From assembly GCA_964513825.1 (NCBI GenBank), contig CAZEOJ010000002.1:1-48024 (forward strand): a stretch of 48,024 bases of DNA. Direction: 5' to 3'. Both the position numbers and the translations under genes were made by a program. Origin of the DNA: an uncultured Bacteroidaceae bacterium. Its GTDB lineage: Bacteria > Bacteroidota > Bacteroidia > Bacteroidales > P3. Below, piece by piece: positions 10,766 to 48,024 of this stretch. The notes below the pieces were generated by a model. It saw only the letters and a list, made by a program, of their open reading frames with translations. It had not been told where the DNA came from and made no database searches. How positions within the stretch are numbered: position 1 is the first letter of the stretch; every line of letters starts with the position of its first letter.

Positions 10766-12640
10766 ATGAACCGAAAGAATACCCTGCGGAAACTCCTTGC
10801 CTACCTGCTTGCAGGCGGGGTGTTCTTTTGCGTGCTCTATTTCGGCCTCAAAGAAGTTTTGGCGGGTTGGGAGGCGCACAGCTCGCTGTTCCGCTATTCG
10901 GCCTCGTATATAGACGAATTCCGCGGCGAGATATGGGGGCCGCTGCTTTATACCAACAGTTTCTTGGTGCAGTTTGCCTACTATCCCGCCTTGGGCGCCC
11001 TTATCTGCGCGCTCTTGCTTACGCTTACGGCCTGGAGCCTCAATACGGCGGCGGGTATGGAGCGCTTGGGGCAAATTCCCATAGGTGTTGGTCTCACGGC
11101 CTGCCTTCTGCCCGTGTTTCCGCATACGTTTATGGTGTGGCCGCTTATTTTCCTTGCCATAGGTCTGGGTGGCGTGCTTTGGCGCAAGACCCGCCATGTA
11201 GCGCTGCGCATCGTCTACTTGGCCTTTTTGGTGTTCTATATCCGCGAATATATTTTGGTGGCCTGGGTGTTCTATGGCATGATAGACTTGGTGGATTGCC
11301 TTTTCGAAGTCCGCACGGGCGGGGCCGCGTTTTTAAAACGCTTTGCCATCCACACCCTTGCACTTGTGGTGCTCTGTTGCGTGGGTGTATGGATATGGCA
11401 GCCCTATGCTTTCTTTTCGACGGGTTTCGAGAGGCTTGATTTCGGAAACGCCATAAGCACCGAATATATCCGCGTGCCTTTCGCCTATTTTTATGTAAAA
11501 TCTCTTGCCACATTTTGCGTATTGGTGGGTTGTGTGGCATGGATGTTCACGCCTTTGTTGGCGCAGGTAAAGGGTAAGATTTTTCGTGGCATCGTGCCGG
11601 GACTTTGCCTGACAGCGGGTCTTTTCTCGCTCGGCATCACGCCCGTGCAGGCCAGGCCTATGGCCCGCTTCTTTGCCGTAGACCGGCTTTGCCGCCAATA
11701 CCGCTGGCAAGAGGCCTTGCAGCAACTTAACCGCGACTATATCTACCATACCGCCGCCACGGGTCATCTGGCCGAGGATATGCTTTACGAGGCCCAGCTT
11801 AAGACCTGCCTTTTGGCCACGGGCAGGGCCAGTGGCCAAATATTCACTTATCGGCTTTCCACCTTCCCATTTATTTTTCCCACAAAGTTTATCAACCGCC
11901 CCGAATCCTATGTAACTCCCGTTTACTATGCCTATGCGGGCAATTTCAGCGAAAGCCTGCATCAGAACTACGACTGGATAACCAGCCATAACTATTCGCC
12001 TGTGGTGATGCGCGAGATTATCAAGGTGAGCCTGATGCTCAACGACACCTTGCCCGCCTCCAAATTCGTGCATATTATGCAGCAAAGCCTGTTCCGAGCT
12101 AAGGAAGCACAACGCCTTTTTGCGGGCGAGGATTCCGAGGCGCAGGCACAGATAGAAAGGGGAAAGGCTATGCTTCCCTTGGTCAATTATGCAGTGGATG
12201 CCTATAAACCCGATAAGAATGCCCGTCGCAATTTTCTCTATAGGGGCTATAACCCCTTGTTTTTCGAATACTACCTTGCGCTTTGTCTCTTGGATAAGAA
12301 TCCTGGCGACATTGCCCTTCATCTTGACCAGATAGAGGAATGCTATCCGCAGGGCATGCCCCGCCATGTGCAGGAAGCCCTGTTGGCCATAGCGGGCTAT
12401 TCGCCTTCCACAGCCATTACTTCTGATGGCATAGATGGTATAGAGGCCGATACGCGCAGCGATTTCGCGCTCTTTGTGCTCGACAACCTCAAGTTCCAGC
12501 GCGAGGAGATTTCGTTTGCCGATTTAGCCCATAAGTGGAGTCATACCTATTGGTTCTACGATCTCTATATGCACGAAATCCCCGAAACCCTACAACCCCA
12601 ACAACCTCCTTATGGAAATCAATTGGATAAAACCATTTAG
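10766..12640 (+). CDS. Family M paralog M4: polytopic membrane protein with a large C-terminal soluble domain
   Basis: 624 aa. About 8 hydrophobic segments lie in residues 1-290, followed by a soluble domain. Family motifs are MPRHVQEALLAI and an aromatic near-terminal WSHTYWFYDLYM. It is divergent from P3, and its 3' end overlaps the P4 start by 29 nt. Confidence 0.85.
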   Translation: MNRKNTLRKLLAYLLAGGVFFCVLYFGLKEVLAGWEAHSSLFRYSASYIDEFRGEIWGPLLYTNSFLVQFAYYPALGALICALLLTLTAWSLNTAAGMERLGQIPIGVGLTACLLPVFPHTFMVWPLIFLAIGLGGVLWRKTRHVALRIVYLAFLVFYIREYILVAWVFYGMIDLVDCLFEVRTGGAAFLKRFAIHTLALVVLCCVGVWIWQPYAFFSTGFERLDFGNAISTEYIRVPFAYFYVKSLATFCVLVGCVAWMFTPLLAQVKGKIFRGIVPGLCLTAGLFSLGITPVQARPMARFFAVDRLCRQYRWQEALQQLNRDYIYHTAATGHLAEDMLYEAQLKTCLLATGRASGQIFTYRLSTFPFIFPTKFINRPESYVTPVYYAYAGNFSESLHQNYDWITSHNYSPVVMREIIKVSLMLNDTLPASKFVHIMQQSLFRAKEAQRLFAGEDSEAQAQIERGKAMLPLVNYAVDAYKPDKNARRNFLYRGYNPLFFEYYLALCLLDKNPGDIALHLDQIEECYPQGMPRHVQEALLAIAGYSPSTAITSDGIDGIEADTRSDFALFVLDNLKFQREEISFADLAHKWSHTYWFYDLYMHEIPETLQPQQPPYGNQLDKTI

Positions 12641-14191: not shown

Positions 14192-14656
14192 ATGAAAAAA
14201 CACCTCCTTTTGTTCGTTCTCCCCCTGTGCCTGTGCGCGTGCAGCGGCAAGCACGGGGCCGAAAAAACGGGCCACACCTTTCTCAAGGCCTACTACACCG
14301 ATCTCGACTTTGCCAAGGCCAAGCAATACGCCACACCGGTATCGCATGCGCTTATAGATGAAAGGGCCGAGAACCTTTCGTATAATCCCTATGCCAAGCA
14401 GGAAGTGCCGGAGCTTACCATCAAGGAGTTGCGAATGGACAAGGAAGATAAAAACAAGGCCACACTTAGCTATACGCTCAACCGCGCCCAAAAGACGCTG
14501 GATCTTAAAAAAGCAGAGGGCAAATGGTTAGCCGACCTCGAACGCGAGGCCAAAATGAGGGAGGAGGGTATGCAGAGCCTGGAGGACGAAACGCATGGGG
14601 GCTTTGCTGCTGCTGCCAGCGGGCCGATTAAATACCATAAACGCCGCGTGCGTTGA
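14192..14656 (+). CDS. Small lipoprotein of unknown function
   Basis: 154 aa. MKKHLLLFVLPLCLCACSGK has the lipobox LCAC. The gene starts 2 nt after the P4 stop. A charged C-terminal tail is present. No family assignment was possible by eye. Confidence 0.7.
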   Translation: MKKHLLLFVLPLCLCACSGKHGAEKTGHTFLKAYYTDLDFAKAKQYATPVSHALIDERAENLSYNPYAKQEVPELTIKELRMDKEDKNKATLSYTLNRAQKTLDLKKAEGKWLADLEREAKMREEGMQSLEDETHGGFAAAASGPIKYHKRRVR

Positions 14657-14671
14657 TTATAAAGAAATCCT

Positions 14672-14708: not shown

Positions 14709-15359
14709 ATGAAAAAGTTGATGCTTATAAGCCTTTTGGCGATGGCGGGAGTTTGGACTTTGCAGGCGCAGACCACCGATAGCACGGCGGTGGCGCAGGC
14801 CGATACGGCGGTTGTTTTAGGGGATGGTGGGATGCGCAGAGGCGTTGAGCTTCCTGAAAAATTAAGGGAGTTTTTAGGGGCGGATAAATATAAGGAAGCG
14901 CTTGCCGAATATCTCAAGTTCAGGCCTACCATAGCGGGCGATGATTTTTTGGCGACATATGCCGATATGAATATTTATAGAACGCTGGCGGAAAATATGC
15001 CAGAGAAAACCGAATATAGGGAACTTTATGAGGTTGCTAAAAAGAAATTGCAAACCACCTATGGCAAGAGGGTGGATGTGATTCTGATGGAGTTGGACGA
15101 ATTGCAGGCCCCTACCGACCAAGACAGAATCCGTGTCTACACTAAGGTGATTGAGGCGGACTCCACCTATACGCATGCTTATCTCGAAAGAGGCTATGCT
15201 TGGATGAACGAAGGCCGTATGTTGGATGCTTGTCACGATTTTAGCAAGCATCCCGACTATGATAAAATGCCGTGGAAACAAGAATGCGAGAGCCTGTTGG
15301 AACAGGAGGCTATAGAAAAGGCAACAGCAGAAGAGGCGGCGAAAGCAGCAAAAAAATAA
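14709..15359 (+). CDS. Secreted TPR-like protein, paralog 1
   Basis: 216 aa with signal peptide MKKLMLISLLAMAGVWTLQAQ. It has a TPR-like segment (KVIEADSTYTHAYLERGYAWMNEGRMLDACHDFSK) and is collinear with 15366..16049. Confidence 0.7.
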   Translation: MKKLMLISLLAMAGVWTLQAQTTDSTAVAQADTAVVLGDGGMRRGVELPEKLREFLGADKYKEALAEYLKFRPTIAGDDFLATYADMNIYRTLAENMPEKTEYRELYEVAKKKLQTTYGKRVDVILMELDELQAPTDQDRIRVYTKVIEADSTYTHAYLERGYAWMNEGRMLDACHDFSKHPDYDKMPWKQECESLLEQEAIEKATAEEAAKAAKK

Positions 15360-15365
15360 TTCGCG

Positions 15366-16049
15366 ATGCGGCGCTTTGCAGTAGCTTTCCTTTTGCTATT
15401 TACGTTGAGCAGCATGGGCTTTGCCCAGTCGGCTTCTGTGGCCTCGCGCAGGGTAAACGAGAATCCCCAGGCGGATTCCTTGGCCCTGCGCGCGGCCTTT
15501 GTGGCTGATTCTTTGGCGGCAGAGCAGGCCCGGATTTCCGATAGTCTCTATCAAGTCACTTCGGGGCTTATTTCCTTGCCCGACAGTATCAATCATCTGC
15601 TCGACGAGCATAAGACCGAAGAGGCCTGGACGGCTTACCGTGCCTATAGGGAAAGCCTTGTCAACCCCACGCCTTTCGGTTTGGATTTTCTTCATAAGGA
15701 ATTTATTGGCAAACTGTCTACCTTTGGCGACACCACGGCGATGCGCGATGTCTATCATAAGCAGAACGTGCGGCTGAAAAAGGCCTTGATAAAGAAATAT
15801 CCCAATAAGGCTGAAGTCATTTGGTATGAGAGCGATAAGATAAAGGATGAGGATTCCCGCGAACCTATGGTGAAGTTGCTTACCAAAATGATCAAGCACG
15901 ACCCCGCCAACCTTTGGCCCTATAAGACGCGGGGCCTGTATCTCTATATGTTGGGGCGCTATGAAGAAGCGCTTGCCGATTTCGAACGCCTTCCTGATAA
16001 GCAAACGATTTTGGAATATCACAATTGCCGTATGTTTCTCGGCAAATAG
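15366..16049 (+). CDS. Secreted TPR-like protein, paralog 2
   Basis: 227 aa with signal peptide MRRFAVAFLLLFTLSSMGFAQ. It has a TPR-like segment (KMIKHDPANLWPYKTRGLYLYMLGRYEEALADFERL) and starts 6 nt after the preceding gene. Confidence 0.7.
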   Translation: MRRFAVAFLLLFTLSSMGFAQSASVASRRVNENPQADSLALRAAFVADSLAAEQARISDSLYQVTSGLISLPDSINHLLDEHKTEEAWTAYRAYRESLVNPTPFGLDFLHKEFIGKLSTFGDTTAMRDVYHKQNVRLKKALIKKYPNKAEVIWYESDKIKDEDSREPMVKLLTKMIKHDPANLWPYKTRGLYLYMLGRYEEALADFERLPDKQTILEYHNCRMFLGK

Positions 16050-42400: not shown

Positions 42401-45400
42401 GTGACGGGCATCACCGACTACACCTTGGCATGGTTCAGAATCCGCAACAACGTCGAGATAGCCCTCGGCAACGGCTCGGCCACGCTGACCCTCACCGACG
42501 CCGTCGACGAAGACCTCTACTATGCGGTGGTTACCCCGCTGGGCAACTGCATGGATGCCGCCAGCCGTCACAGCGACACCGTAGAGGCCACCATCTATCC
42601 CACGCCCGTGGCCAACCCCAACAAGGCCCGCTACAATCCCGCCCGCGCGTGCAGCAACGACACCGCCTGGATAGAATGCTACCAGACCGTACCCCGCAAG
42701 GGACGCTTCGCGCAGACCCTCGAATACAGCATAGACGGCACCAGCTGGCGCACCGACGGCATCTTCAAGCCGCTGCCCGACCAGAGCGAGTACAGCATCC
42801 ATATCCGCAACCAATACGGCTGCAAGGCCAAGAACAGCCCCATCGTGGTGCCCAAGACCACCATGAAGTCGAACGCATGGCTCCGCGCCGGCCTCAACGA
42901 CACCTGCTACCAGGGCAACAGCGTCACCGTGAAGGGCGACACCGTCATCGACGCCACCCCGCTGTGGAGCACCTCGGGCACGGGCACGTTCAACAACACG
43001 GGCATCCTGCATCCCACCTACACGCCCAGCGCGGCCGACTTCGCCAAGGGCAAGGTGACGCTCTACCTCAAGACCAACAGCAGCAACGAATGTGATTTGG
43101 CCGACAGCATCGAAATCCTCCTGTTGGGTTGCGAGATCTATACCTTTGAGGTGAAAGGCAACACCGACGTATGCTTCGGCGGCACCGGCACCTACCGTGC
43201 CCGCTTTGCGGTCGACGCCGCCGGCGCCTCCGCCATCAGACCCGCCGACCATACCATCATATGGAGCACCCGCGACGCTTCGGGCAACCTGTCCGTGCTC
43301 AAGACCGATAACGACACCGCCTCCACCTGGAGCCTCACGGTGGCCGACAGCGGCTGGTATTATGTGACGGGCACCACGGCTACGGGCTGCATGTTCAAGG
43401 ATTCGCTGCACATCACCCTGGCCACCGAACCCGACATCGCCATCCTCCACGGTACGCCCTGTCCCACCACGCCCATCACGTTCCGTCTGGATACGGCCCT
43501 GCTCTTCGCCAAGAGCGGCTATGTCAACTACGCCTACAACTGGAGTGCCGTGGCCTATAAGGGCGGCGTTTCCACCACCCTCGGCACCGGCACGGCCGAC
43601 AGCCTCGCCCTGTCCCCGCTGCCCGCCGAAACCGACAGCCTCGTGGTGAGCGTAAGCATCACCACCGCCGAAGGCTGCACCTACAGCCGCACCAAGACCC
43701 TTTCCTACGAGCCGTGGGAAGACCTCTCGGGCTATGTGACCAACGACACCGCGGTTTGTCAGATCAACTCCTATGTTCTGCTGGCCGATATCGAAGCTCT
43801 TGATATCCTCAAGCACTACACCATGCAGTGGAGCAACGCCCGCGGCACGGCCAACCCCTTGGCGTTCCTGGCCAACGATCCCATCCTGGTGGACAGCACC
43901 AACAGCTACTACCTCACCATCACCCGCCCGAGCGACGGATGCCACTACTACGACACCATCCACGTGCGTGTAGACTCCATGCCCAGGATCTATATCGCCG
44001 ACACCATCTTCAAGTGCGCGCAGACGGGTCGTTTCTCGGTTTCGCCCGACAGTGTCGAGTATAACAAAGACGCCTACTATTGGTATCTCGATACTTACGG
44101 ACCCTGCAAGCCCAGCATAGCGAATGTCGACAAATACAGCGTCAACTTTACGCCTTGCGCCTCCATGTACAATGCCGACGGCTGGGCCACCCTGCGCCTG
44201 CGCACCGAAGGTATCAACGCCTGCGCCGGCAAGATTGTCTACGACACCGTCACCCTTGTGTTCCGCGGTCTGATGAAGACGGATGTGAAGAACGTGAGCG
44301 TATGTCTCGACGACAGCGTCGATGCCACCGTAGTGGTGACCGACCTCCATGGTGCCAATGTGGACAGCTTCGCCTATATCCTTATGCGTCCCGACAGCGT
44401 GCTGCGCAATGCCGCCGGCGACACCCTCCTCTACCGTCGTCCCGACACCCTCGGCACCTTTGTCTACAAAGACACGCTCAGGGTATGGAACGCCGACCGT
44501 TGCTACATCGAAAAACCGTATACCGTAACCTTTACGGCCACCGCCCGTATCCTGGAAGACACCATCGTCATCTGCACCGGCGACACGGCCACCCTTACCG
44601 TGGCCAACGCCACCCGTACCCCCTCGTGGCAGGAGTTGGGCAAGAGCACCACGCTGCACTCGGGCAACAACTATAAGGTGACGCCCACCCAGACCACCAC
44701 CTACGTGGCCTCGCGTTTCGCCAGCTCGGGCGGCTGCCAGAAGTATACCACCGACACGGTTACCGTAGTGGTGAAGGAAGGCTTCTACCTGCGCGCCGTA
44801 CCCGACAGCAACTTCTGCAACCCCGGCGAGATGCTCTGGGCCGTAGACAGCGTGGATGCCGAAGACGTAACCTACACCTGGGTCGACAGCGCCCTGCAGG
44901 TACTCTACGGCGTGGGTGACCCGAGAGCCATTGTCTCCACCGACAGTGCGTTTACCGACAGCGTCACCGACACCGACAAGACCTACTACCTGCACGCCGT
45001 GGCCGGCAACGGATGCGAGAAGAACATCACCGTGCGCGCCACCTACCGCCACATCCACTTTGCCCTGAACTACTACGACACCGTGGTTTACGAAGGCAGC
45101 AATCCTAAGGTGGCCGTAATCGGCTCCATGCCCGGCGGCTACTACCCGTGGTTCGACGCGCAGGACAGCATCTACCTCACCTTGTCCGACAGCCTCTACC
45201 GTCCCAAACTTACCCGCGACACCAACTACTTCTACTTTGTGGGTGAAAGCAAGGAAGAAGGCTGTGCGCTCAAGCTCAGGGTCATCACCATACCCATCCC
45301 CATGTTCGACACGGCGGTATGCGACTACGAGTGCGCCGAAATCCGACTCAGGGGCAGCGAAGGCGCCGACAGCATCACCTACAGGTATGCCGACACGCTG

Positions 45401-48024
45401 ATGTTCGTGACCGAACACAGCACGCCGGTACGCCAGGAATACTCCTACAGCGACACCATGGTAAGGACCACGCAGCACCTGCTCGACACGGTTCTCTACC
45501 ATGCGATATACGAGCCCTATCCCGGCAAGCCCAAGAACGATACGGTGAAGGTGAACCCGTTCTGCGACAGTATCTACGCCGATCCTTTCATCGAGCTGGT
45601 ATACGCCGGTCTCAACGCCCAGGGTGTGGATGTCTACAAGGAAGTGGTGTCCTACAAGCATACCGAACTCAAGTGCCTCGAGGCCGAGCCCGGCATGAAG
45701 ATTATCTGCGATACGTTGTATTCGATAGACTACAATAAGGACAAGAAGACGGGTGTAGAGACAAAAACCCGTTTGGACGAAGGTACTTTGGTCAACTGCC
45801 GTCAGGTGGACAGTGTCTGCAGAGTTACCTACATAAGCGCGTTGAGTGAAGACAAGAAGTTCGACACAGCCAAGGCCGTATTGGATTGCACGCCGCCCGC
45901 ACCTGGTGTGAAGACCATCTGCGATACGATTTACGATTTGGAAAAAGTGAAGAAAGGTTCGGTTTATGTCTACAACCGCACGGGTGCATTCAAGACCGAG
46001 AACTGCAAGACGGTTGCCGAAGACTGCGAGGTAACGTATGCGACAACCACCGACAAGACCAATTTGATAGAGACGGTAACTTACAGTACTGCCTGCACCG
46101 AAGGTGGCGATAAACCTAAAGAGAAGACCATCTGCGACACGATTTATGTATTGGAGAAGGTGAAGAAAGGTTCGGTTTATGTCTACAATCGTACAGGCGT
46201 ATTTACGACCGAAAATTGCAAGAAGGTAGCCGAAAATTGTGAGGTAACATATACAACGACCACCGACAAGACGGCATTGAAAGAAACTGTAGCCTACAGC
46301 ATTAACTGCAAGTCTGAAGGTGGTGATACACCTAAGCCGCCCACTCCGACGGTGAATACGAAACAAATCTGTGACACGGTATATACGTTGGAGAAGGTGA
46401 AGAAAGGGTTGAGTTACGTATACAACCGCACGGGAGCCTTTACGGTATCGAACTGCATCAAGGTAGCCGAGGACTGTGAGGTAACGTATACGACAACCAC
46501 GGACAAGACAGCCTTGGTGGAGACGGTGACCTACAGCACCACCTGCAAGCCTGTGGAAGAGGGTGGCGATACACCGACACCGCCTACGCCTACGGTGAAG
46601 ACCAAACAGATCTGCGATACGGTATATACGTTGGAGAAGGTGAAGAAAGGGTTGAGTTACGTATACAACCGCACGGGAGCCTTTACGGTATCGAACTGCA
46701 TCAAGGTAGCCGAGGACTGTGAGGTAACGTATACGACAACCACGGACAAGACAGCCTTGGTGGAGACGGTGACCTACAGCACCACCTGCAAGCCTGTGGA
46801 AGAGGGTGGCGATACACCGACACCGCCTACGCCTACGGTGAAGACCAAACAGATCTGCGATACGGTATATACGTTGGAGAAGGTGAAGAAAGGGTTGAGT
46901 TACGTATACAACCGCACGGGAGCCTTTACGGTATCGAACTGCATCAAGGTAGCCGAGGACTGTGAGGTAACGTATACGACGACCACGGACAAGACGGCCT
47001 TGAAAGAGACGGTGGCTGCGGTACACAGTTGCGAGCCCGTGAAAGAGGGCGGAGAAACCCCAAAACCCGACGACCCCAAACCCAATCCCACGCCTACGGT
47101 AAAGACCAAACAAATCTGTGATACGGTATATACGTTGGAGAAGGTGAAGAAAGGGTTGAGTTACGTATACAACCGCACGGGAGCCTTTACGGTATCGAAC
47201 TGCATCAAGGTAGCCGAGGACTGTGAGGTAACGTATACGACGACCACGGACAAGACGGCCTTGAAAGAGACGGTGGCTGCGGTACACAGTTGCGAGCCCG
47301 TGAAAGAGGGCGGAGAAACCCCAAAACCCGACGACCCCAAACCCAATCCCACGCCTACGGTAAAGACCAAACAAGTCTGTGATACGGTATATGCGTTGGA
47401 GAAGGTGAAGAAAGGATTGAGTTACGTATATAACCGCACGGGCGAGTTCACGGTAGAGAACTGTGTGAATGTGGCCGAAGACTGCGAGGTGACGTATACG
47501 ACGACCACGGACAAGACGGCCCTGAAAGAGACGGTGGCTGCGGTACACAGTTGCGAGGAGGTCAAGACTGGCGACACTCCAGCACCCAAGCCTGACCCGA
47601 CGCCCGACCCCAAACCGGACCCGGAGCCCGAACCTACGCCTACGGTAAAGACCAAACAGGTCTGTGATACGGTATATGCGTTGGAGAAGGTGAAGAAAGG
47701 ATTGAGTTACGTATATAACCGCACGGGCGAGTTCACGGTAGAGAACTGTGTGAATGTGGCCGAAGACTGCGAGGTGACATATACGACGACTACGGACAAG
47801 ACGGCCTTGAAAGAGATGGTGGCTGCGGTACACAGTTGCGAGGAGGTCAAGACAGGCGATACGCCTGCCCCCAAGCCCGACCCAACGCCCGACCCCAAAC
47901 CGGACCCGGAGCCTGACCCCGAACCGACACCTACAGTAAAGACCAAACAGGTCTGTGATACGGTATATACGTTGGAGAAGGTGAAGAAAGGGTTGAGTTA
48001 CGTATACAACCGCACGGGCGAGTT
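21440..48024 (+). CDS. Giant cell-surface repeat protein (SprB/Ig-like-repeat adhesin type), at least 8,861 codons, 3' end beyond the window
   Basis: The + frame with codon starts equal to 2 mod 3 has a TAA at 21425..21427 and then no stop to base 48024. The track lists many + ORFs in the other two frames but none in this one. Spot translations across the whole span give coherent Cys-framed modules, for example VCRGDSATIGATGAETYMWEP, GGNGVYTYKWEYSLDG and WQISADGGTTWAEV. SprB-type repeats are ATCGGEEGSITLSGNKGTAPYTYTFNG (26045..) and SSCGESDGIIGIRAKGDTTLTYSI (26534..). A TTG start at 21440 gives a signal-anchor (LKHFDRIHIRGILLAVALFLAVLAGSAAVV). The first in-frame ATG is at 21593. The start codon is uncertain; the reading frame is not. 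Confidence 0.9.
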   Translation, partial: MKHFDRIHIRGILLAVALFLAVLAGSAAVVRYRSTLSAPAVEPAPVSVSVPMSSVAAPVSAPEIPVAAMPAAASAEPAVADDVEFGPYAGGMASGVETAVSKLSKPSKTYAGGMADGHANMQMVRPIMALYHSGIGDGHATVTLTARPYLGYLGGIGDGHSTATMKPSANLAYLGGFGDGHTTATQPNPVAMAYMGGFGDGNTTATQPEVLARAYLGGFGDGHTHAQMFTGPAVAYLGGFGDGHTHAQMKTGPAVAYLGGFGDGHISVAMKTGPAVAYLGGFGDGHISTAMKARPAVSYLGGFGDGHISMGMKALPSVAYLGGFGDGFHNINNPLPKPWPYMGGIADGFITTLGKGLFVPMYAGGKSDGFAKRAVPCDTNQYLIYAVDSLCPKDTLFLATDSVEYANYYWRGPDGWTSREQNPIRPNFTTKMAGTYTVTIDPGCASSDELPMASKIIKAIYAEPVYAVIDSMAPNMGTEELCYGDSSFFRLTGYGFGDTARFVWKINGLPVLEKINDTTAYFDSLANGFKLSVEVYSSLGCVTDRPYETKPITIKATEKKIVNVTIAADIDQSLTDVTVCEGLPLTFASAYVNAGDNPRFVWLHNEDTVFDGVSKNVIRIDTLADGDSVRLMLHSSIHCVDCRPKESNTLHIHVKNLPEMKVSPEQAINLNENVDIWATGGSEFAQYAWTPCASLTGGICDKDTVNAAPRTTTTYQVTLTEPWGCVVKDTVRVEVYTDTRIIEHAKSVTVCDSTEATFKVRASGVDAHYKWQVDEGDGWVDIDSLPKPNPYWVEQQGSTNCFLHIGKDTAHKTTALSMAMDGFKYRCVVDGRKATTGIRDTLYSNDPLIIGDAILSINPIQYSYPSIVRAPNDTLCEGENATFKLSFVNTPSTKCRIDWKVDTSILASGQDLIFTTPVNRGTQIQALVYTAYRCPAFDPEVSNVWVAAAHKAPVVNAGKDTTIQYNTTGLLHGKLVAVNQDTLASDTMRYSWAPLSGIKGVSDSLEAKTGIIKANVEYVLTGTNIHGCIHRDTVLVTCKGGPLGMDGKIGAGTVVKQYIEICENDSLCISGKPVGGSEMYHHVWTEKPLDSTPANPYFATADTSVLCMKNSPVGTTVYTLTVDDGVDTVYKEITVKVIGLVLSSATLTGDTVLCTPSEYFNIGVKPDETVEGVANYTWYVEDTAAKTFKAVRNFEGKAVYAGRGNTVYNGARLFCAVTVANKCPIVNPIHTDTLVLWPDGTPKFTTITRDTSICPADTVALFATGTRVDSLFWTPQTFVVAGGDAKSETDTVLVAPTSNTTYTVTLVSIEGCTASRNVRVNIHPTTSTKATASDVYACLNGSTRITTTTRGYDLTYIWEKRVGGTGEWKLASEKAPAGKYEGLNSANLTVNYVEKIEEGDQYRLIAVSSRCMPSDTTAPVTLHVLDSVIFSMTLVDTPRCVNDPARIRLYTNVSASALKAFSVELNGGTTGKRTFQTRDTLFTIPNITPGEKVQAFMTPTGLIASCVEVLPIPSEIIDLGVQPAPTLSYTYNNPATCGGEEGSITLSGNKGTAPYTYTFNGVDKGTQTVYSGLSAGMYSAQVADIYSCKSQPVYISLRDPNGPVAPAVTNAGMYCVQDTLPEYLLLDPNTKKAEIRWFTDIRCTNQVHTGDSMPFPSMPGVYTYYLYQIKNNCKSATTRVWVFVGAAPQITSVEAIVPSSCGESDGIIGIRAKGDTTLTYSIEDPANYGNSADFVDLPNGTYILSVLSAAGCVTRDTLEFYADNTPEGPKMISRDTIYCYDAPRKPLEAKPAGGGFIVWYRDYTLTTEMGQGDTCNISSLGVGKNTISATERGGECESKPVRVNVTVLPKINTGVPAINEGCLNTDITVRARKDATVAYTWLKGGVEIGKGDTLVVGVTEETEVYTVHAVKNTNGVVCATDYDFKVRQSTFVPVIDTSVCQGDSIEITVPGGIKYLWPDSSTASTYTVRAGNPNSVQAVLVKVELEGGCTRNYRFNITTDADPSSYVSIDKDFTFYCAGDAKALKAVLSNTSVPVSLQWFKDGEMLAGDTTATLNIQNDTVGLSTYVVRAEARNRCPLPRVTYDTLVLRTYALPKVYAGMDTLVDYNESITLGTDATVSDGVLPYAYTWVKKGETTPINTSSTVLTTASPRLVNTTVFELKVVDSVGCGAKDEVKVTVVGGPFSLDSIRPFDITLDEYAEIICVGDSVSFEALPEGGSGKYEYVWEMPVGTVVSNKDQIRFLPASTTQCKVTVINLTKGTPMASDTLVRYPRVVVHQRAVAGTVTTPDTTMCPDSSFRLTLRSYSGDRIQWQRSVDGTTWSTLVGSTASITISGAAKTNYYRALVGNGVCPDVASPDLKVLVYTSPLDTIAGPADTLCPETEGVALTGNLVTEGGNGVYTYKWEYSLDGEKYLTCPNEADGVNYTWTNRIDTTRYFRRMVYSDGCPFISNVHKVDVYDEIGTSITIKKDFDLYCTADPQQLKVSLSNPDVPVTLQWFRNGVAIDSATEAVLTIHDTVPGTYTYRVEAVAFENHCPPTRYSSDSVTLTAYPSLVVYAGVDDSVQYGERVILGMEAWVKSGTEPYAYSWVKSGTNNALNADKTQLIMQTSRLTYTTVFDLKVKDARGCTAQDDVKVKVLGGPFRLDSIRPFDITLNDYRDTICVGDSVSFTAQPEGGSGVYRYIWEIEGEVVRDKPEIRLLPLQSTFCKVTVINVTEGVAVASDTLVRYPHVIVHQRAVPGYITTPDTTMCPDTSFKLKLHEYSGNRIQWQRSVNGVVWSALNGTADSISVPGTKNTYLYRALVGSGVCPDVATPQLKVSVYTPPVNTVSGPTETLCPEVDSVMLEGNTVTSGGNGTYTYSWEYSTNGGSYKVCPDEPAGEDYLWRNCIDSTRRFRRVVYSDGCPYYSNVYTVKVYTGTRIGRILGENYVCFDSIFSLSVTPTDMDSYQWQRAVHPDSAFENVGDGTFGYTSDPAKRTYFYRVIGQKYGCEPDTTDLFEISPTTPREVTVHISVDTMATCVDNFLTFTVDSTLNAGNAPTFYWYVNGKVLKTPVMKGSETLAYTENGGKVLRISTLRPGDSVWAGLASSIGCVTTRLALSDTIKPTVYLPEAHFVSPLADSVFCRRDTVVLHAEGGVKYSWFYRVDTDSVTRVLDTTNTNKVKVSPTEPTVYAFYGIDRHNCFFSDSLKLSPEPTVTASPDTLICHGSTIALQISVQPNRGNTYQWTETAVHSGTPATLNAREATTATVRVKPEDSLTYYIYSVYTLRGCTYTDTIRVETETTTMPSFVIDYNGYKSGDTVNIVECSKQEHFFVPDSIMSGGDKPTFKWYFNNYVAGKDSLFSDSYAGMLDRSTVYAEMTSSKKCVSERTVKSNSLYVRYTKMPDADVNINSNKGLQVCPDEEVVIFQAHTPSYDSGTYVWFVKRVDSGANARFENVHTGDSLVGNFAAGDQVYCVYFANDTCIKGSPKQSNTLTFQTYPLHRPKVTITQIINEYPAWGDTICEYAPVTFVAAIEDAGKDYAFTWMLDGTIIGTPNTLRIAYDELQANSDTAVNMRNLVARLETKHQCASPGNVVEANDTIYVRPRKHFSAYIEQEGTLDCQSITEELVRFTQVISPHYVYRDGYLATVCNGSYTSDWTNSAAVSQQVISGGNGVVKATAAHASYYQMFGLTSKESMVNYGDIDYAIYLNAGTVQVYEKGTNKGSFGRYVAGDVFEVEVLDNNVRYIKNGTVFYTSTVPATAFVYRGGYALRTHWCPNTPESSHHQDPKLLDIRIVYHKSGVVFNSRIVAPPVNKPTYTWYVNGKPFEFGNGEASLVEHNYAFEDGDVVKLFAKTNDYCVDVPSAMSQEIMVRVPVAKDFLRTVADTVFVCRGDSATIGATGAETYMWEPVRYFSQAQSRDSSIHYLPLETASYRVYGTVNTNCTDFKRVDVIVNELPKPDLGKDINVCYPDTVYLSINKGAVPDTTTDRIYHTAWTFIPDKGEAYNPVSTHENAIDYALLSTGRMVAAMSNVSSGCTVTDTMVINVLDTLGIVVTHTARVLPKYSCPGARDTLSFSYMQNENHPVTLAWYKNGRLLRSSNNANDTVLITNDFVDLDTIYAVVSLPFECGLERAKDTALFPLRRHVKPVASIVVSEDTLCAGDTLGVAVKVVDNPDDTVVYSYRWYINNKAVALTDTPSIRLEDYVSDGTFYYNVFCYVRRALECGFDSVKSADTTILIMPIDTIAVRIDPEVVTGCVYPDGRVFMHADLVVEGRHPVFDKALPAITWYLDDTVVSGLNGTAFDHLVASMDTSAAHTLAVKAVSSYKCVAVNTVFDTADIDFFAVYADAGPDTSIESNKNVTLFHDSVRGDRIQWTTGGDGYFTNATVLHPTYILGTQDRKSDSIILYLHVSSRFGCDTRDSMVIRLTRCAAYALAKRSSDQTICHDDTLFIENKVVAISTAIGSDIPHILYTLTAQPSGRYPLDTLAVVEDSTNAFRWKGVVDTSRKYLLHAEILNTFCHYYDSTRVTVLPLNTISVKLNQPDSTKCTVGALKQAEWTSLNSMHWSVGDGVARHIHCNNYPYAPTSAYGLANSTMRYVATGKELAVLVGFNYENDRNTALDYAFYLTNGSFTIYHEGNPVTYSAVGSYKVGDVFTIVRDHKQVIFYVDQNGTHREVYRMDEPAYGHGLKVNYAAASFRSGDVINPIMYGSTTAAKVFAEVQYGPVSGNVSYVWKVGDKVISTASTFDYEKVNLQSGDTVTVRAMGVNRCDTLYAYDTLIVDGPASPNAPFFLALTRDSAAQCEGEGFTLTAHAYNLENVADGSLTASDLRYNWYLNGTLVKGNTAANTYLYNNLKNGDYAHVEAVLPATACALYREGNPTLSHRLYFSLKENRKLDFDMYLARAKDTAVCPNTAVTFNTKVVNGGGYTIDWYVNGRLAAAGNSYTVTPDSSFDVYAVVHPNSTGYCLDSTGNVSKTIKVRLLEVPRVRAWADTEVVAGSKVMLHGELLRETDKPTSVQWTSTQGTVPGRNSLNPTITANTTTFYFLTAYSAYGCASNTDTVEVDVYECPTLRNYSVPDMVCDGDSALLRVDMAGYKPSSNRYLWQISADGGTTWAEVSGSRYTVTNDRTGSTLKVKPANFDLDASNNVRFRAVISADTSRSNLCNTVYTPKLSLNVDKAHLVPPTIDLLGESDFCTTDCHVYPVYEAKLSEGYEVAWKLNGSGVLEWDGNDHKRSYTVHNGDKVIGVLYGNSVCVNRMNISDTITVRFHRPVKVKAWSDTMIRKNDAAMLHASATEGTGRITYKWTDASFVVDDTKAETQTKSISATRIFTVTATDSLGCIGTGKVLVKVNDTCITNVKLQGPESVCVNETATFQGLITGDRAFGTPQSEWTVNPPLLSNDGSIIVPNPNSARMDIADAQPGTYTVKFTVTDTLEQTKKYCNPDGIVMSDSLIFTINAPDTLSLRIDTLQTRSYCENDKAVIRAQARVNGNLPAAGELLVRWYRIRNNYTTYRGSGDSIIENNLFDGDRFYAVASFADNNCVISNSVYSDTATFRVGEKPEPLQAQQVVAHNHISCVPDDSTYIVINPSASQLAYNLLYTIDSGRTWHTDSVFGNLAEGHYYVGVKADDGCSTDKMVSVYIQNQPDYEFDTLSFRIDTIYACNGKIDLFPSQRADSASGLGYIEWFEDSARTKLLKRSPEYAKSHTYVPERRFLDSVGVYEFWAAESAGLCKGTPSKFVYIVSSCDAELTPKRDTICSDDTVLYSLVIDSISLRNAGGWLFQYSADGKFAPATTENISTGDTLAMTFRDNRAGSYRVAYITPNQDTLYHEASTLWVGTYADPAKYISLAYPKTKAIDMCPGETATFTFYDKDRMFEVFWPGDTAGSTYHSTYEVTLDSTAAVYVRLRSLLGGCESDTTVEVIVRQRTTIALSSYDTTVCYEPDTYLYFPQVLDTGNVFYITYEWAKVGGTDMGSGPFLVQNTRFEVEPDTNYYVATASTGYAECPSRPDTFRVVAHRPTWTVTPAQVTVCAGNLFPFHAGTPFDSIRFGEGMWQPRGNDSFTLGPIYKDSTVSVTILRKTCESVGTFNVKIVARDTLGVELTENADACVALAPVTGTNIDLGLHAQLQYRVQGTENSAFAGLVYKGVAASAQTMPYSFYMVTDGEGETHLYVYVNGVQANMTSFGTVEAGDRLAIGREEGKMNFYRNGALLYSTAETSRAADYMNAQVDVDGNTALTDITLLNLPGSKVSASVNTVYNNRTYAWYINGTEVGTAAALDAAAHPVMNGDTVVLRVRSASPCDTLEKADTLVISKQNAYKPLTVAIDTPDALCPGAAHYTFTATVTAPAGVAAADLRYNWYRNGNKVVSGASYNTYDANNLQVGDVVFAEAYVANNLCVLNQSSYPAVSNRVVPQFEQPAAKTARILPEPGLTLCRFDEATFTVVMTGNAYLPARVDWYLNGTLAQSSAALTYRTNALADGDKVHAVVQLSADELCDGLQLVYTDTVSLTVNPVPVVEAGPDQSAFFGDTVQLNGSVLSGLSDPMTYHWTPQTQPADALSTQCIVEHAGYRYLYATNSYGCTGYDSLFIDMDECNYIEAQSPVNGNEVCEGDSVRFTVTIGGMRAGNPQRIWQISTDNGSTWSNVPAADYKVDNAGLLVRRAEASMNNALYRMVFVPDATLDMDCDTLYSLPYRLKVNAATRTLAASLQEPGVLCDDVATVTFTLNGSFQTGDLYAWYLNGIPVGQGSASLTLDRNRIADGYKLKAVVEAAAQACADKQVVADSLTIKINPALTLDAWADTIINRNTQAALHADAQGGTAPYAYSWKQASYTQDATAANTYTTNLTATRLFEVEATDQAGCKATARVRVSVVDTCIDGIEIAGDNQTKTVFDLCQDSSITFDALVSGGMPGGYTLAWTVSPALPADDLVTSANGARLWMKPSVAGTYTLTATVTDTTALGAALCTAAQRTHTATVTLNVSAPATFAVSVAEADALCEAEVEEGKLTLQATVTGITDYTLAWFRIRNNVEIALGNGSATLTLTDAVDEDLYYAVVTPLGNCMDAASRHSDTVEATIYPTPVANPNKARYNPARACSNDTAWIECYQTVPRKGRFAQTLEYSIDGTSWRTDGIFKPLPDQSEYSIHIRNQYGCKAKNSPIVVPKTTMKSNAWLRAGLNDTCYQGNSVTVKGDTVIDATPLWSTSGTGTFNNTGILHPTYTPSAADFAKGKVTLYLKTNSSNECDLADSIEILLLGCEIYTFEVKGNTDVCFGGTGTYRARFAVDAAGASAIRPADHTIIWSTRDASGNLSVLKTDNDTASTWSLTVADSGWYYVTGTTATGCMFKDSLHITLATEPDIAILHGTPCPTTPITFRLDTALLFAKSGYVNYAYNWSAVAYKGGVSTTLGTGTADSLALSPLPAETDSLVVSVSITTAEGCTYSRTKTLSYEPWEDLSGYVTNDTAVCQINSYVLLADIEALDILKHYTMQWSNARGTANPLAFLANDPILVDSTNSYYLTITRPSDGCHYYDTIHVRVDSMPRIYIADTIFKCAQTGRFSVSPDSVEYNKDAYYWYLDTYGPCKPSIANVDKYSVNFTPCASMYNADGWATLRLRTEGINACAGKIVYDTVTLVFRGLMKTDVKNVSVCLDDSVDATVVVTDLHGANVDSFAYILMRPDSVLRNAAGDTLLYRRPDTLGTFVYKDTLRVWNADRCYIEKPYTVTFTATARILEDTIVICTGDTATLTVANATRTPSWQELGKSTTLHSGNNYKVTPTQTTTYVASRFASSGGCQKYTTDTVTVVVKEGFYLRAVPDSNFCNPGEMLWAVDSVDAEDVTYTWVDSALQVLYGVGDPRAIVSTDSAFTDSVTDTDKTYYLHAVAGNGCEKNITVRATYRHIHFALNYYDTVVYEGSNPKVAVIGSMPGGYYPWFDAQDSIYLTLSDSLYRPKLTRDTNYFYFVGESKEEGCALKLRVITIPIPMFDTAVCDYECAEIRLRGSEGADSITYRYADTLMFVTEHSTPVRQEYSYSDTMVRTTQHLLDTVLYHAIYEPYPGKPKNDTVKVNPFCDSIYADPFIELVYAGLNAQGVDVYKEVVSYKHTELKCLEAEPGMKIICDTLYSIDYNKDKKTGVETKTRLDEGTLVNCRQVDSVCRVTYISALSEDKKFDTAKAVLDCTPPAPGVKTICDTIYDLEKVKKGSVYVYNRTGAFKTENCKTVAEDCEVTYATTTDKTNLIETVTYSTACTEGGDKPKEKTICDTIYVLEKVKKGSVYVYNRTGVFTTENCKKVAENCEVTYTTTTDKTALKETVAYSINCKSEGGDTPKPPTPTVNTKQICDTVYTLEKVKKGLSYVYNRTGAFTVSNCIKVAEDCEVTYTTTTDKTALVETVTYSTTCKPVEEGGDTPTPPTPTVKTKQICDTVYTLEKVKKGLSYVYNRTGAFTVSNCIKVAEDCEVTYTTTTDKTALVETVTYSTTCKPVEEGGDTPTPPTPTVKTKQICDTVYTLEKVKKGLSYVYNRTGAFTVSNCIKVAEDCEVTYTTTTDKTALKETVAAVHSCEPVKEGGETPKPDDPKPNPTPTVKTKQICDTVYTLEKVKKGLSYVYNRTGAFTVSNCIKVAEDCEVTYTTTTDKTALKETVAAVHSCEPVKEGGETPKPDDPKPNPTPTVKTKQVCDTVYALEKVKKGLSYVYNRTGEFTVENCVNVAEDCEVTYTTTTDKTALKETVAAVHSCEEVKTGDTPAPKPDPTPDPKPDPEPEPTPTVKTKQVCDTVYALEKVKKGLSYVYNRTGEFTVENCVNVAEDCEVTYTTTTDKTALKEMVAAVHSCEEVKTGDTPAPKPDPTPDPKPDPEPDPEPTPTVKTKQVCDTVYTLEKVKKGLSYVYNRTGE
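21695..22560 (+). repeat. About 14 tandem copies of a 21-aa (63-nt) Y-L-G-G-F-G-D-G-H repeat in the N-terminal region of the giant protein
   Basis: Direct reading gives core copies such as PAVAYLGGFGDGHTHAQMKTG and PAVAYLGGFGDGHISTAMKAR, with GCCTATTTGGG recurring at 63-nt spacing (e.g. 22142 and 22205). Flanking copies are degenerate (YAGGMADGH, YHSGIGDGH, YMGGIADGF, YAGGKSDGF). Confidence 0.9.
27440..30180 (+). repeat. Tandem duplication of a roughly 1.37-kb (about 457-aa) multi-domain unit inside the giant gene
   Basis: Unit A (about 27440..28810) and unit B (about 28811..30180) are collinear. Examples: KDFTFYCAGDAKALKAVLSNTSVPVSLQWFKDG vs KDFDLYCTADPQQLKVSLSNPDVPVTLQWFRNG; GGPFSLDSIRPFDITLDEY vs GGPFRLDSIRPFDITLNDY; RIQWQRSVDGTTWS vs RIQWQRSVNGVVWS; RYFRRMVYSDGCPF vs RRFRRVVYSDGCPY. 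Boundaries are approximate. Confidence 0.8.
35050..44200 (+). repeat. Two diverged copies of a roughly 4.56-kb (about 1,520-aa) super-repeat inside the giant gene
   Basis: Collinear landmarks have a constant offset. GACCTGCGCTACAACTGGTA occurs at 35868 and 40433 (offset 4565). TGGCAGATAAGC (WQIS.DGG/NGS.W) occurs at 36685 and 41263 (offset 4578). AWSDTMIRKNDAAMLHA pairs with AWADTIINRNTQAALHA, VRWYRIRNN with LAWFRIRNN, and YTIDSGRTWHTDSVF with YSIDGTSWRTDGIF. Outer boundaries are approximate. Confidence 0.75.
45695..48024 (+). repeat. Array of at least 10 tandem four-cysteine modules with Pro/Thr/Asp-rich linkers in the most distal part of the giant gene visible here; it continues beyond the window
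   Basis: The consensus unit is K-[TQ]-I-C-D-T-[VI]-Y-x-L-E-K-V-K-K-G-x-x-Y-V-Y-N-R-T-G-x-F-x-x-x-N-C-x-x-V-A-E-[DN]-C-E-V-T-Y-x-T-T-T-D-K-T-x-L-x-E-x-V-x-x-x-x-x-C plus a linker. First-Cys codons are at 45707, 45920, 46133, 46370, 46613, 46856, 47117, 47378, 47663 and 47954. Spacings are 213, 213, 237, 243, 243, 261, 261, 285 and 291 nt. Adjacent pairs 4/5, 6/7 and 8/9 are nearly identical at the DNA level. Confidence 0.9.

Follow-up and report, generated by a model that had tools for sequence, protein, structure and literature searches.

The window, as we call the whole 48,024-nucleotide stretch of DNA analysed here, ends in a long run of closely packed genes for envelope proteins, and the question raised by this locus is whether they build one machine dedicated to a giant surface protein or whether separate systems lie side by side. 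An earlier note on this DNA had proposed a single envelope machine with two gene families, P and M, as its repeated core. The reading that we favour, with a probability of about 55%, is that at least two modules are juxtaposed, an array of M-P cassettes and a giant-adhesin operon, and that the two FGE-fold proteins encoded in the latter, G and H, are non-catalytic binders of a peptide tag. Module 1 would consist of window positions 1-14189 together with gene F (16053-17507), and module 2 of positions 14192-16049 and 17682 to the window end. A PIN-domain gene lying within the M-P array belongs to neither module.

Features of the window, with their positions, strands and main characteristics.
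Feature	Positions	Strand	Characteristics
P-family gene, cut by window start	1..1173	+	begins at CxxCH, continues into PD40 propeller
g1, P-family lipoprotein	1211..2746	-	NIAPLNF motif, CFNCH, PD40 propeller
g4, M-family variant	4015..5124	-	DUF6057 C-terminal helical domain only, behind lipoprotein signal
PIN-domain gene	5125..5544	-	PIN_3, E=4e-18; within M-P array
g6, P-family lipoprotein	5890..7518	-	
g7, M-family membrane protein	7515..9131	-	24% identity to F (E=7e-17); at least 4 TM segments
g8, P-family lipoprotein	9055..10710	-	
A, DUF6057 polytopic membrane protein (M)	10766..12640	+	Pfam E=1.5e-39
B, P-family lipoprotein	12612..14189	+	CVNCH at residue 184, PD40 propeller
C, small lipoprotein	14192..14656	+	kept beside FGE/giant unit in clade
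D, secreted helical protein, paralog of E	14709..15359	+	no Pfam match
E, secreted protein	15366..16049	+	one weak TPR match
F, DUF6057 membrane protein without P partner	16053..17507	+	Pfam E=4e-15
Candidate -7 box TAAATTTG	17612..17619	+	Bacteroidota -7 promoter match within F-G gap
G, long FGE-fold protein	17682..19721	+	FGE-sulfatase E=1e-10; signal peptide; possible lipobox (LGAC)
H, short FGE-fold protein	19747..21420	+	signal peptide, N-terminal beta-sandwich (residues 25-177), FGE-fold domain
Giant surface protein	21440..48024	+	>8861 aa, 3' end beyond window; Ig-like, CHU_C-associated and PKD-like domains
Tag array, 14 copies of Y-x-G-G-x-G-D-G-H	21701..22549	+	63-nt tandem repeats, exact 21-residue period
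Shadow ORF, 7054 codons	26669..47833	-	antisense, codon-aligned to giant
Tandem Cys-containing modules	46130..48024	+	243-285 nt (81-95 aa) each; Pro/Thr-rich linkers, run off window

The physical description in the earlier note was reproduced for the junction sizes, the envelope signals and the paralog pairs. Every long gene between 10766 and the window edge indeed lies on the + strand. A and B overlap by 29 nt, and the gaps that follow measure 2 nt (B/C), 52 nt (C/D), 6 nt (D/E), 3 nt (E/F), 174 nt (F/G, given that G starts at the ATG at 17682), 25 nt (G/H) and 19 nt (H/giant, the giant starting at the TTG at 21440). As had been claimed, each product of this run bears a signal for the envelope, namely a polytopic membrane topology in A and F, a lipobox in B and in C, a signal peptide in D, E, G and H, and a hydrophobic N-terminal segment in the giant. 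BLASTP comparisons support the paralogy of G and H (33% identity, E=7e-72) and of D and E (26%, E=6e-9); A and F both match DUF6057, yet they can barely be aligned to one another. The description of D and E as twin TPR proteins needs correction, since E gives a weak TPR match (E=1.5e-4, under the Pfam cut-off) and D gives none at all. Judging from the -7 box in the F-G gap, a separate G-H-giant transcript possibly starts there. Rfam and tRNA scans of the window came back empty.

The M proteins of the window were assigned through DUF6057 (PF19529), for which A scores 136.8 bits, g4 61.4 bits (E=1e-16, profile positions 307-568) and F 56.1 bits, all above the Pfam gathering score of 29.8 bits; g7 has no Pfam match and was assigned by its identity to F. 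F occupies its position only in the window and in a 91%-identical relative, L004. In the AF2 model of A (pLDDT 90), a helical membrane bundle makes up the N-terminal half, and TPR-like helical repeats follow in the C-terminal one. A GT-C fold or another known membrane-enzyme fold was considered for DUF6057 and rejected, as the best Foldseek E-value was 0.2 and the matches were partial and TPR-like only; a DUF6057 profile search against PDB sequences returned nothing at E<=1, and a literature search found no publication on the role of this domain. The P copies of the window share 26-49% mutual identity, 49% being the value for g6 and the copy cut by the window start. Each of the five carries a single C-x-N-C-H, as do all 125 P relatives (125/125), and this motif is probably a site for covalent haem c. 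The 1.2-kb gap at 2828-4014 contains no remnants of M or P. In our model, M would be a DUF6057 polytopic inner-membrane protein with its TPR-like domain in the periplasm, and P, translationally coupled to M, would be a lipoprotein with a single CxNCH followed by a TolB-like PD40 propeller.

To place these genes in a wider context, we surveyed 80 independent metagenome loci with P relatives. M adjoins P in 73 of them, mostly as M then P, abutting or overlapping, and frequently in tandem; M-P is thus an autonomous, abutting two-gene cassette. SusD was found in 32 of the 80 loci and SusC in 28, and a recurrent string reads SusC-SusD-(u8-DUF4369)-[M-P]n-RidA-like-GH31. SusC/SusD loci of the polysaccharide-utilisation type are the usual home of DUF6057-P, and in other Bacteroidales the cassettes follow SusC-SusD there on the same strand, often with GH31; tblastn detected no relatives of SusC, SusD, DUF4369, RidA-like or GH31 in the window. 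Since M-P cassettes elsewhere sit in SusC/SusD-type loci, they most likely serve, within the periplasm, some process of nutrient or redox handling and not adhesin assembly.

The earlier note had suggested a neighbourhood-conservation analysis, whose outcome was split: the twin FGE-like genes and the giant proved to be linked, and M-P did not behave as the core of the adhesin locus. The twin FGE-like genes and the giant form a conserved unit in five loci (L004, L005, L006, L163 and L165), and in L017 the FGE-like pair precedes a tag-bearing ORF within which the contig stops. C together with a D/E-like gene is present in five of these six adhesin loci, the C homologs of L006, L017, L163 and L165 being 42-53% identical, and other lineages have a single D/E-like gene with the adhesin unit. 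C and the TPR-like D/E would be clade-specific accessories in our model.

The possibility that A, the giant and all the genes between them belong to a single dedicated envelope machine, in which a repeated M-P core assembles, anchors or modifies the giant, must be weighed against these surveys. It would agree with the tight junctions on a single strand, with the occurrence, in three lineages (window/L004, L006 and L163), of A-B orthologs adjacent to the adhesin locus, and with the position of F, an M copy, directly upstream of G in the window and L004. Against it stands the 80-locus survey, in which no locus contains an ORF of at least 1500 aa, none contains C or D/E, one contains an FGE-like gene, and the recurrent neighbours are SusC/SusD and similar genes. 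Conversely, L005 and L165 have FGE-FGE-giant with no M-P within 8-10 kb upstream, the upstream flank of L165 being made of housekeeping genes, and neither M nor P was ever found in the distant loci with an FGE-like gene and a tag described below. The promoter-like box between F and G also argues against a single machine, as does the orientation of the M-P pair in L006 and L163, where it is on the opposite strand. Taken together, we consider one machine very unlikely. The P proteins of L006 and L163 share 58-60% identity with B and about 30% with the other P copies of the window; because these A-B orthologs, though inverted, lie beside the adhesin locus, the A-B pair may have a lineage-restricted functional link to it.

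We then considered the giant itself. No stop interrupts its frame between 21428 and 48022 (8865 codons), and the gene continues past the window edge; homologous giants are 8463 and 9654 aa long. Pfam detects Ig_7 ('CHU_C associated') twice (E=5.7e-21 and 6.2e-13) as well as PKD-like, Ig_3 and Ig_2 domains, and a SprB-repeat match (E=5e-4) falls under the Pfam cut-off. Close partial homologs are named 'SprB repeat-containing protein'. SprB is the gliding adhesin of Flavobacterium johnsoniae, encoded in the sprC-sprD-sprB-sprF operon, and is a type B cargo of the T9SS. The window resembles this operon in that a giant, repetitive, Ig-like surface protein follows small envelope proteins on the same strand. 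However, the SprB operon specifies a type B sorting domain and a downstream SprF/PorP, whereas the C-terminus of the giant and its downstream genes lie beyond the window, and SprB serves gliding, which is unproven in the source of this DNA, apparently a gut-type Bacteroidales MAG. The homologs retrieved in search of the C-terminus are partial fragments, on which no sorting domain was found, and the loci of the full-length homologs (8463 and 9654 aa) were read over a 10-kb flank. The giant is probably exported by the T9SS; indirect support for a sorting domain at its C-terminus comes from the tag-bearing partner proteins of other genomes, described below.

Two long open frames on the - strand lie under the giant, the shadow ORF of the table and a second one of 1291 aa, also codon-aligned. 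A real antisense giant gene was rejected, its translation being R/G/V-rich nonsense; the antisense frame stays open because rare codons are generally purged from the giant gene.

Near its N-terminus, the giant carries a tandem array of a glycine-rich motif, which we call the tag, and whose last copy reads Y-A-G-G-K-S-D-G-F. The giants of the clade have 8-15 copies of the motif spaced by exactly 21 residues, and the array starts about 60-130 residues past the hydrophobic N-terminal segment (about 60 in the giant of the window), unlike in most of the distant relatives, in which the tag comes directly after the cleavage site. Two known kinds of protein were considered here and rejected. An RTX beta-roll came to mind because the motif of the tag is similar to GGxGxD, but the period is 21 and not 9 residues, and Pfam gives no match there. 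The N-terminal domain of the TANFOR polymorphic toxins (TIGR02542), a family described in PMC7073777, has no NCBIfam match in the first 2000 residues of the giant.

To determine how far the tag accompanies FGE-like genes, we scored the motif [YF].GG...G in the first 170 residues of proteins from 79 species-level genomes. Secreted products bearing [YF]xGGxxxG are encoded by 43 of the 65 genes directly downstream of a member of the FGE-like family, compared with 10 of 600 ORFs at other positions of these loci (odds ratio 115, p=2e-41); in the M-P loci, none of 616 ORFs has the motif. In 38/43 cases, the first residue of the motif lies 2-15 residues beyond the signal-peptide core, and in 24/43 the motif directly follows Q, usually as A-Q. 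At least 19 of the 38 partner proteins scanned have a T9SS sorting domain (17 Por_Secre_tail, 2 CHU_C). FGE nearest neighbours have partners of the same motif class in 26/32 cases, an agreement that shared descent may explain. An enrichment of large ORFs near distant FGE-like genes was also looked for and appeared by eye to be about background, the signal being the tag and not protein size. Mini-cargos composed of a signal peptide, the tag and a sorting domain alone exist, for instance L082:7030-7527. Some pairs of FGE-like gene and tag were recovered in MAGs with the label Lentisphaerae, Omnitrophota or Verrucomicrobiota, groups not expected to possess a T9SS; these cases could result from mis-binning, or the pair could work without T9SS. 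A literature search found nothing linking FGE-sulfatase with T9SS cargo.

What, then, are G and H? Their PF03781 matches reach 42 and 33.8 bits (Pfam cut-off 23.3) over an alignment limited to profile positions 35-142 of 255. The model of H has a pLDDT of 92, and its top Foldseek matches in the PDB are FGEs (E=3e-7, TM about 0.5 normalised on the target). A comparison of 93 family members shows a single near-invariant cysteine, C345, which precedes an RPxTExE motif; no conserved Cys pair occurs over the final 150 columns of the consensus, and the invariant charged residues include R430, R441, R519, E173 and K248. G has a signal that could be that of a lipoprotein, LGAC being followed by GSG, while in H and in the family consensus the signal is of the signal peptidase I type and stops just before NNI. 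The family is annotated as 'SUMF1/EgtB/PvdO family nonheme iron enzyme'. G and H thus share domain and fold with FGE/SUMF1 (PF03781) but differ from it by the absence of the catalytic, copper-binding Cys pair, by the absence of a sulfatase gene nearby and by a partner motif that is not CxPxR.

According to one alternative, G and H belong to the oxidases or modifying enzymes of the FGE superfamily, have a re-built active site and carry out a post-translational modification of the Tyr/Gly/Asp/His tag repeats in the periplasm before export. The target of FGE itself is a short peptide motif close to one end of a protein, and we counted this in favour of an enzyme, together with the family annotation, the strict pairing of the G/H family with a short conserved peptide motif and the many invariant charged residues. 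The non-conservation of the two FGE copper-binding cysteines and the restricted Pfam match weigh in the other direction, and so does the tag, which, in contrast to FGE substrates, keeps neither Cys nor Ser at any set place. In addition, the cysteine-less precedents in Bacteroidota, PorK, GldK and GldJ, are structural and not catalytic (PMC12421860, PMC12635249). An enzymatic role therefore seems unlikely to us.

These precedents open another possibility. Both catalytic cysteines are missing from the FGE fold of PorK, GldK and GldJ (PMC12421860, PMC12635249), which were shown in 2025 to make up the ring or track whose movement carries components of the T9SS and of gliding (PMC12635249, PMC12421860). 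G and H, which likewise combine a cysteine-less FGE fold, the Bacteroidota envelope and a tie to T9SS cargo, could be cargo-dedicated GldJ/GldK/PorK paralogs that form polymers beneath the outer membrane and link the giant to the T9SS or gliding motor, the tag being unrelated, such as a beta-solenoid stalk. The common repurposed fold (PMC12421860), the proximity of G and H to a SprB-like giant and the fact that GldJ and GldK act as a pair (PMC12635249) are consistent with such paralogs. However, neither G nor H has any NCBIfam match at E<=0.01, GldJ and GldK models included, and no PorK chain was found among PDB matches to the family profile at E<=10 or among the top 50 Foldseek matches. G and H also differ from PorK/GldK/GldJ by an extra N-terminal beta-sandwich and by being encoded with an individual cargo gene and not with porL/M/N, and H, like the family consensus, lacks a lipobox. 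Finally, such paralogy would leave unexplained the N-terminal tag, which is the sole feature common to otherwise unrelated downstream proteins. We regard this origin as rather improbable.

We therefore return to G and H as tag binders. The conserved heart of module 2 is an FGE-fold protein followed by a cargo with [YF]xGGxGxG[DFH] near its N-terminus; in the window, the FGE-fold gene is duplicated (G and H) and the tag amplified to 14 copies of 21 residues. Without the FGE copper-binding cysteines, G and H would be non-catalytic, lectin-fold binders that dock on the tag array in the periplasm. They might then serve as chaperones for the N-terminal end of the cargo or hand it over to the T9SS, or else exit with the cargo and sit at the distal N-terminal tip of a C-terminally anchored filament. 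Both the binding of G and H to the tag and their location are what we infer from the data above. Going further, we tentatively propose, as a conjecture on which we would not bet, that a widespread and undescribed two-component system exists in which a cysteine-less FGE-fold protein specifically recognises an N-terminal [YF]xGGxGxG[DFH] tag on a neighbouring T9SS cargo. The FGE-fold partner could be a cargo-specific adaptor to PorK/GldK/GldJ-type machinery or a hitch-hiker forming a lectin-like tip, and the latter role would explain the mini-cargos.

For the reading of genomes, this locus indicates that envelope genes packed tightly on one strand are not necessarily one system. DUF6057 gains a first context, since it travels with a putative haem lipoprotein, and the DUF6057-CxNCH-propeller cassettes could represent a new membrane-anchored haem module of SusC/SusD loci. 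The cysteine-less FGE-fold proteins linked to individual cargos would form a third branch, much more numerous, and would offer an explanation for the many Bacteroidota genes that are annotated as 'formylglycine-generating enzyme family' although no sulfatase gene lies close to them. To our knowledge, only C-terminal signals are known for the T9SS; the proposed system, if true, would bring in a further principle, recognition on the cargo side by means of a short tag at the N-terminus, and the FGE-like protein and the tag peptide make a directly testable pair. In that case, the window would hold its most amplified form, with two FGE-fold paralogs, 14 tags and a cargo of >8,800 aa.

Six-frame ORF listing and mapping of stop-free frames reproduced the plus-strand gene map of the earlier note with all its junction sizes, and its observation of a run of envelope genes is confirmed because a sequence-based scan found a signal peptide, lipobox or TM segments in every product. 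Further copies of families M (DUF6057 membrane proteins) and P (lipoproteins with a C-x-N-C-H motif and a PD40 propeller) do lie upstream on the opposite strand. The idea built on this map, a single machine serving the giant adhesin, was mostly refuted, and our reading is that the locus is a juxtaposition of an array of two-gene M-P cassettes and a giant-adhesin operon.

Genes and other features of the window (minus-strand genes upstream of A in the order listed)
Feature	Position	Strand	Description
A	10766-12640	+	family M
B	12612-14189	+	family P
C	14192-14656	+	small lipoprotein
D	14709-15359	+	secreted, paralog of E
E	15366-16049	+	secreted, paralog of D
F	16053-17507	+	family M
G	17682-19721	+	FGE-like (formylglycine-generating enzyme-like)
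H	19747-21420	+	FGE-like
Giant gene	21428 to window end	+	open frame of 8865 codons, stop-free; TTG start 21440
g8	upstream of A	-	family P
g7	upstream of A	-	family M
g6	upstream of A	-	family P
PIN-domain gene	5125-5544	-	PIN_3, E=4e-18
g4	upstream of A	-	family M
g1	upstream of A	-	family P
g0	cut by window start	+	fifth P copy
Tag array	21701-22549		63-nt repeats (TRF)
Tandem modules	46130-48024		81-95 aa each
Antisense ORF	22631-26506	-	1291 codons
Antisense ORF	26669-47833	-	7054 codons
Interval without convincing gene	2828-4014		1.2 kb
Promoter consensus	3315-3346	-	TTTG-N-TAnnTTTG

Relatives of H, annotated as "formylglycine-generating enzyme family" or "SUMF1/EgtB/PvdO family", number in the thousands. 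Scanning one genome per species gave 79 loci, and gene-context look-ups added two (L163 and L165). L004 (91% identity to H) has the same arrangement as the window, its flank extending to only one upstream P copy. The order is P(-) M(-) C(-) G DE H giant in L006 (56%), C DE P(-) M(-) AAA_14(-) G H giant (8463 aa) in L163 (61%), and housekeeping genes, DE(-) C(-) G H giant (9654 aa) in L165 (59%), with no M-P in 10 kb. L005 (58%) reads G H giant, its 7.9 kb of upstream sequence lacking M, P, C and DE, and L017 (54%) reads DE(-) C(-) G H, then the start of an ORF bearing the N-terminal tag described below, and the contig end. What stays constant across these loci is a trio, a long and then a short FGE-like gene followed by the giant gene; C and a single D/E-like gene usually accompany it. 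AAA_14/DUF4143 ATPase genes, absent from the window, adjoin the adhesin locus at L163:5822-7105, L165:2461-3819 and L165:5036-6316.

A-B has orthologs in the M-P pairs of L006 and L163, where P is 58-60% identical to B versus ~30% to the other P copies of the window. An A-B pair lies near the adhesin locus in three lineages, though not always in the same orientation, and two lineages lack it. We read this as inherited synteny, with a small chance of a lineage-specific functional tie to the adhesin. Since F, g1, g4, g6, g7 and g8 are without counterpart in the flanks recovered from L005, L006, L163 and L165, they may be additions in the window's lineage. The 174-nt gap between F and G holds TAAATTTG, a match to the Bacteroidota -7 box, which would fit a separate G-H-giant transcript.

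An alignment of four window P copies was scanned against JGI/ENA metagenome contigs, and gene content was scored with HMMs built from the window paralogs. We recovered 80 loci with P relatives (33-39% identity), some of them near-identical human-gut contigs, the pattern also appearing in termite-gut, digester and sediment contigs. M adjoins P in 73 of the 80. In nearly every case M precedes P on the same strand, the two genes touching or overlapping, and such pairs often form M-P-M-P(-M-P) arrays or divergent or convergent sets. These loci contain zero ORFs of at least 1500 aa and zero C or D/E relatives by HMM, and an FGE-like gene occurs in only one, ~4 kb away, which speaks against the proposal that M-P is the repeated core of an adhesin machine. 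When the remaining ORFs were clustered and cluster representatives annotated, the recurrent neighbours were SusD (32 loci), SusC (28), DUF4369, GH31 and two further proteins, one unknown (428 aa) and one with a RidA/L-PSP domain (436 aa), typically as SusC-SusD-(u8-DUF4369)-[M-P]n-RidA-like-GH31 (e.g. L095:2613-14631); this is a recurrent locus type without described function. These counts make M-P an autonomous cassette that usually resides in a SusC/SusD-type locus. In the window, tblastn found no relative of SusC, SusD, DUF4369, the RidA-like protein or GH31. Of the linkage that the earlier note proposed to check by gene-neighbourhood conservation, the G-H-giant part held, but M-P is missing in two adhesin lineages and is at home beside SusC/SusD.

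Pfam assigned DUF6057 to A, F and g4, and BLAST among window proteins identified g7 as a divergent M member (24% identity to F, E=7e-17). g4 is a variant without the membrane domain and with its own lipoprotein signal; the PIN-domain gene lies within the M-P array directly upstream of it. The confident, all-helical model of A (pLDDT 90.3, pTM 0.90, 61 homologs) shows a membrane bundle followed by helical repeats, with no significant PDB fold match (best Foldseek E=0.2, partial TPR-like hits) and no match in a profile search against PDB sequences; its membrane domain may be a fold without solved relative. DUF6057 is a small family (187 representatives at E<=1e-3 among 1.84 billion), and its alignment has no conserved histidine, which argues against a cytochrome b-type role. 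The literature searched, of incomplete coverage, yielded nothing on it. PD40 repeats were found by Pfam in B, g0, g1, g6 and g8. The lipobox Cys, an NIAPLNF motif and C-x-N-C-H are invariant in the four aligned window copies; among 125 full-length relatives, C-x-N-C-H occurs exactly once in all 125 and NIAP[LM]NF in 111 (CVNCH at residue 184 in B). The simplest reading of these sequences makes P a fusion of a mono-haem c lipoprotein and a TolB-like PD40 propeller, haem attachment being predicted. The interval without convincing gene also lacks any M/P remnant, and upstream of g1 it holds a full Bacteroidota promoter consensus, the window's only one.

The giant protein gave Pfam hits to Ig_7 ("CHU_C associated", E=6e-21 and 6e-13), PKD-like and Ig domains and sub-threshold SprB repeats. 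Its first 2000 residues have no NCBIfam match and thus no TANFOR domain. It is a new member of the Ig-repeat, SprB-like kind of adhesin, its C-terminus and the next gene lying beyond the window and beyond the flanks recovered from relatives. The tandem modules near the window edge are near-identical (89-93%) and continue past it; every module has conserved cysteines and a linker, variable in length, that is rich in Pro, Thr and Asp. A relative, P0281, has similar modules. The antisense ORFs were rejected as genes since they translate to R/G/V-rich nonsense while the plus frame reads as Ig-like repeats. The antisense frame is codon-aligned with the giant's and stays open because the giant gene has so few TTA/CTA/TCA codons (5 in 8861, versus 45 in 6102 in neighbouring genes). 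Rare codons as a whole are depleted in the gene, 4-100 fold (GGG, CGG, CGA and CCA 4-10 fold), and this scarcity belongs to that trend; GC3 is 0.75 versus 0.64 in the neighbours. One possible cause is selection to keep rare codons out of a 27-kb mRNA.

The pairing of an FGE-like gene with a downstream partner extends further. In 73 more distant loci (~31-37% identity to H), from Bacteroidales, Flavobacteriales, Chitinophagales, Saprospiraceae, Cytophagales and Ignavibacteria, there was no M, P or C and one weak D/E hit. BLAST clustering of neighbours placed the giants in one cluster with members in 45 of the 79 loci, mostly the directly downstream same-strand gene. Its common feature is a signal peptide followed directly by at least one copy of a glycine-rich tag, [YF]-x-G-G-x-(G/S/A)-x-G-(D/F/H/Y), such as YTGGSGKGD or YSGGNGRGD (both after AQ) or FHGGSYDGY; this motif is also that of the N-terminal AYLGGFGDGH repeats in the window's giant. 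The pattern [YF].GG...G is present in the first 170 residues of 43 of 65 ORFs directly downstream of an FGE-like gene versus 10 of the 600 remaining ORFs in these loci (Fisher odds ratio 115, p=2e-41); among those 10, several are close to an FGE-like gene. ORFs of M-P loci have it in 0 of 616 cases. The tag starts 2-15 residues past the hydrophobic core of the signal peptide in 38 of the 43 and directly after Q, usually A-Q, in 24, which fits the usual Bacteroidota signal-peptidase site between A and Q.

Beyond the tag, these proteins are unrelated and range from 166 aa to >9000 aa. Among 38 partners scanned, several of them truncated, 17 carry a type A T9SS sorting domain and 2 CHU_C, and SprB, Ig, Fn3 and cadherin domains also occur; a signal peptide, a tag and a sorting domain make up nearly all of the product of L082:7030-7527. 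In the window's clade, the giants have 8-15 tags at an exact 21-residue spacing, with internal copies Y-L-G-G-[FIL]-G-D-G-H and a last copy that is always Y-x-G-G-x-S-D-G-F (window, L004, L005, L006, L163, L165). These two tag classes stand beside two FGE-like paralogs, each of which may read one class. FGE-like proteins with same-class partners (DG[FYH] or G.GD) are mutual nearest relatives in 26 of 32 cases (permutation p=0.0004), showing that the pair is inherited as a unit, which does not in itself prove co-evolution. FGE-like genes, some with a tag protein next, also occur in MAGs labelled Lentisphaerae, Omnitrophota and Verrucomicrobiota (L041, L055, L056, L057, L071, L079), where to our knowledge a T9SS is not expected; either these contigs are mis-binned or the pair works without T9SS.

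G and H match the Pfam FGE-sulfatase domain (42 and 33.8 bits, cut-off 23.3), only over profile positions 35-142 of 255. The confident model of H (pLDDT 92.3, pTM 0.92, 93 homologs) combines an N-terminal beta-sandwich (residues 25-177) with a C-terminal domain whose best PDB matches are formylglycine-generating enzymes (E=3e-7, TM ~0.5 on target), and the family's sequence profile matches FGEs over ~45 residues only, around RPxTExEYEKAxRG. With this fold, G and H could be enzymes that modify the tag. The FGE active site has a copper-binding cysteine pair; in the H family only one cysteine, C345, is near-invariant, and the C-terminal part has no conserved pair, so the copper-binding pair is gone and G and H do not have the active site of an FGE. 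PorK has lost the same pair and is described as a "repurposed FGE fold" (PMC12421860), and GldJ is reported to be structurally related to GldK (PMC12635249). This likeness would suit a GldJ/K-like track paralog, but G and H are unlike these proteins in sequence: A-H have no NCBIfam match, so that G and H are not GldJ or GldK by the NCBIfam models, and the H-family profile has no PorK match in the PDB even at E<=10. In Pfam, C and D have no match and E one sub-threshold TPR match.

Mini-cargos of only tag and sorting domain exist, which favours a docking or display role for the FGE-like protein. G and H, which lack a sorting domain of their own, would be secreted to the periplasm, and we infer that their binding partner is the tag array at the giant's N-terminus. 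The giant would most likely be exported by the T9SS and held by its C-terminus, for which SprB, held by SprF (PMC12635249, PMC10202324), is the model. If so, the tag array would form the distal end of the filament. G and H could then act as a periplasmic chaperone or adaptor bringing the N-terminal end to PorK/GldK-type machinery, or be co-exported and form a lectin-fold tip. In the literature searched, of incomplete coverage, we found no FGE-fold protein paired with an N-terminally tagged T9SS cargo. This pairing of an FGE-like protein with a tagged partner, reached by way of the composite-machine idea, is the part worth following up.
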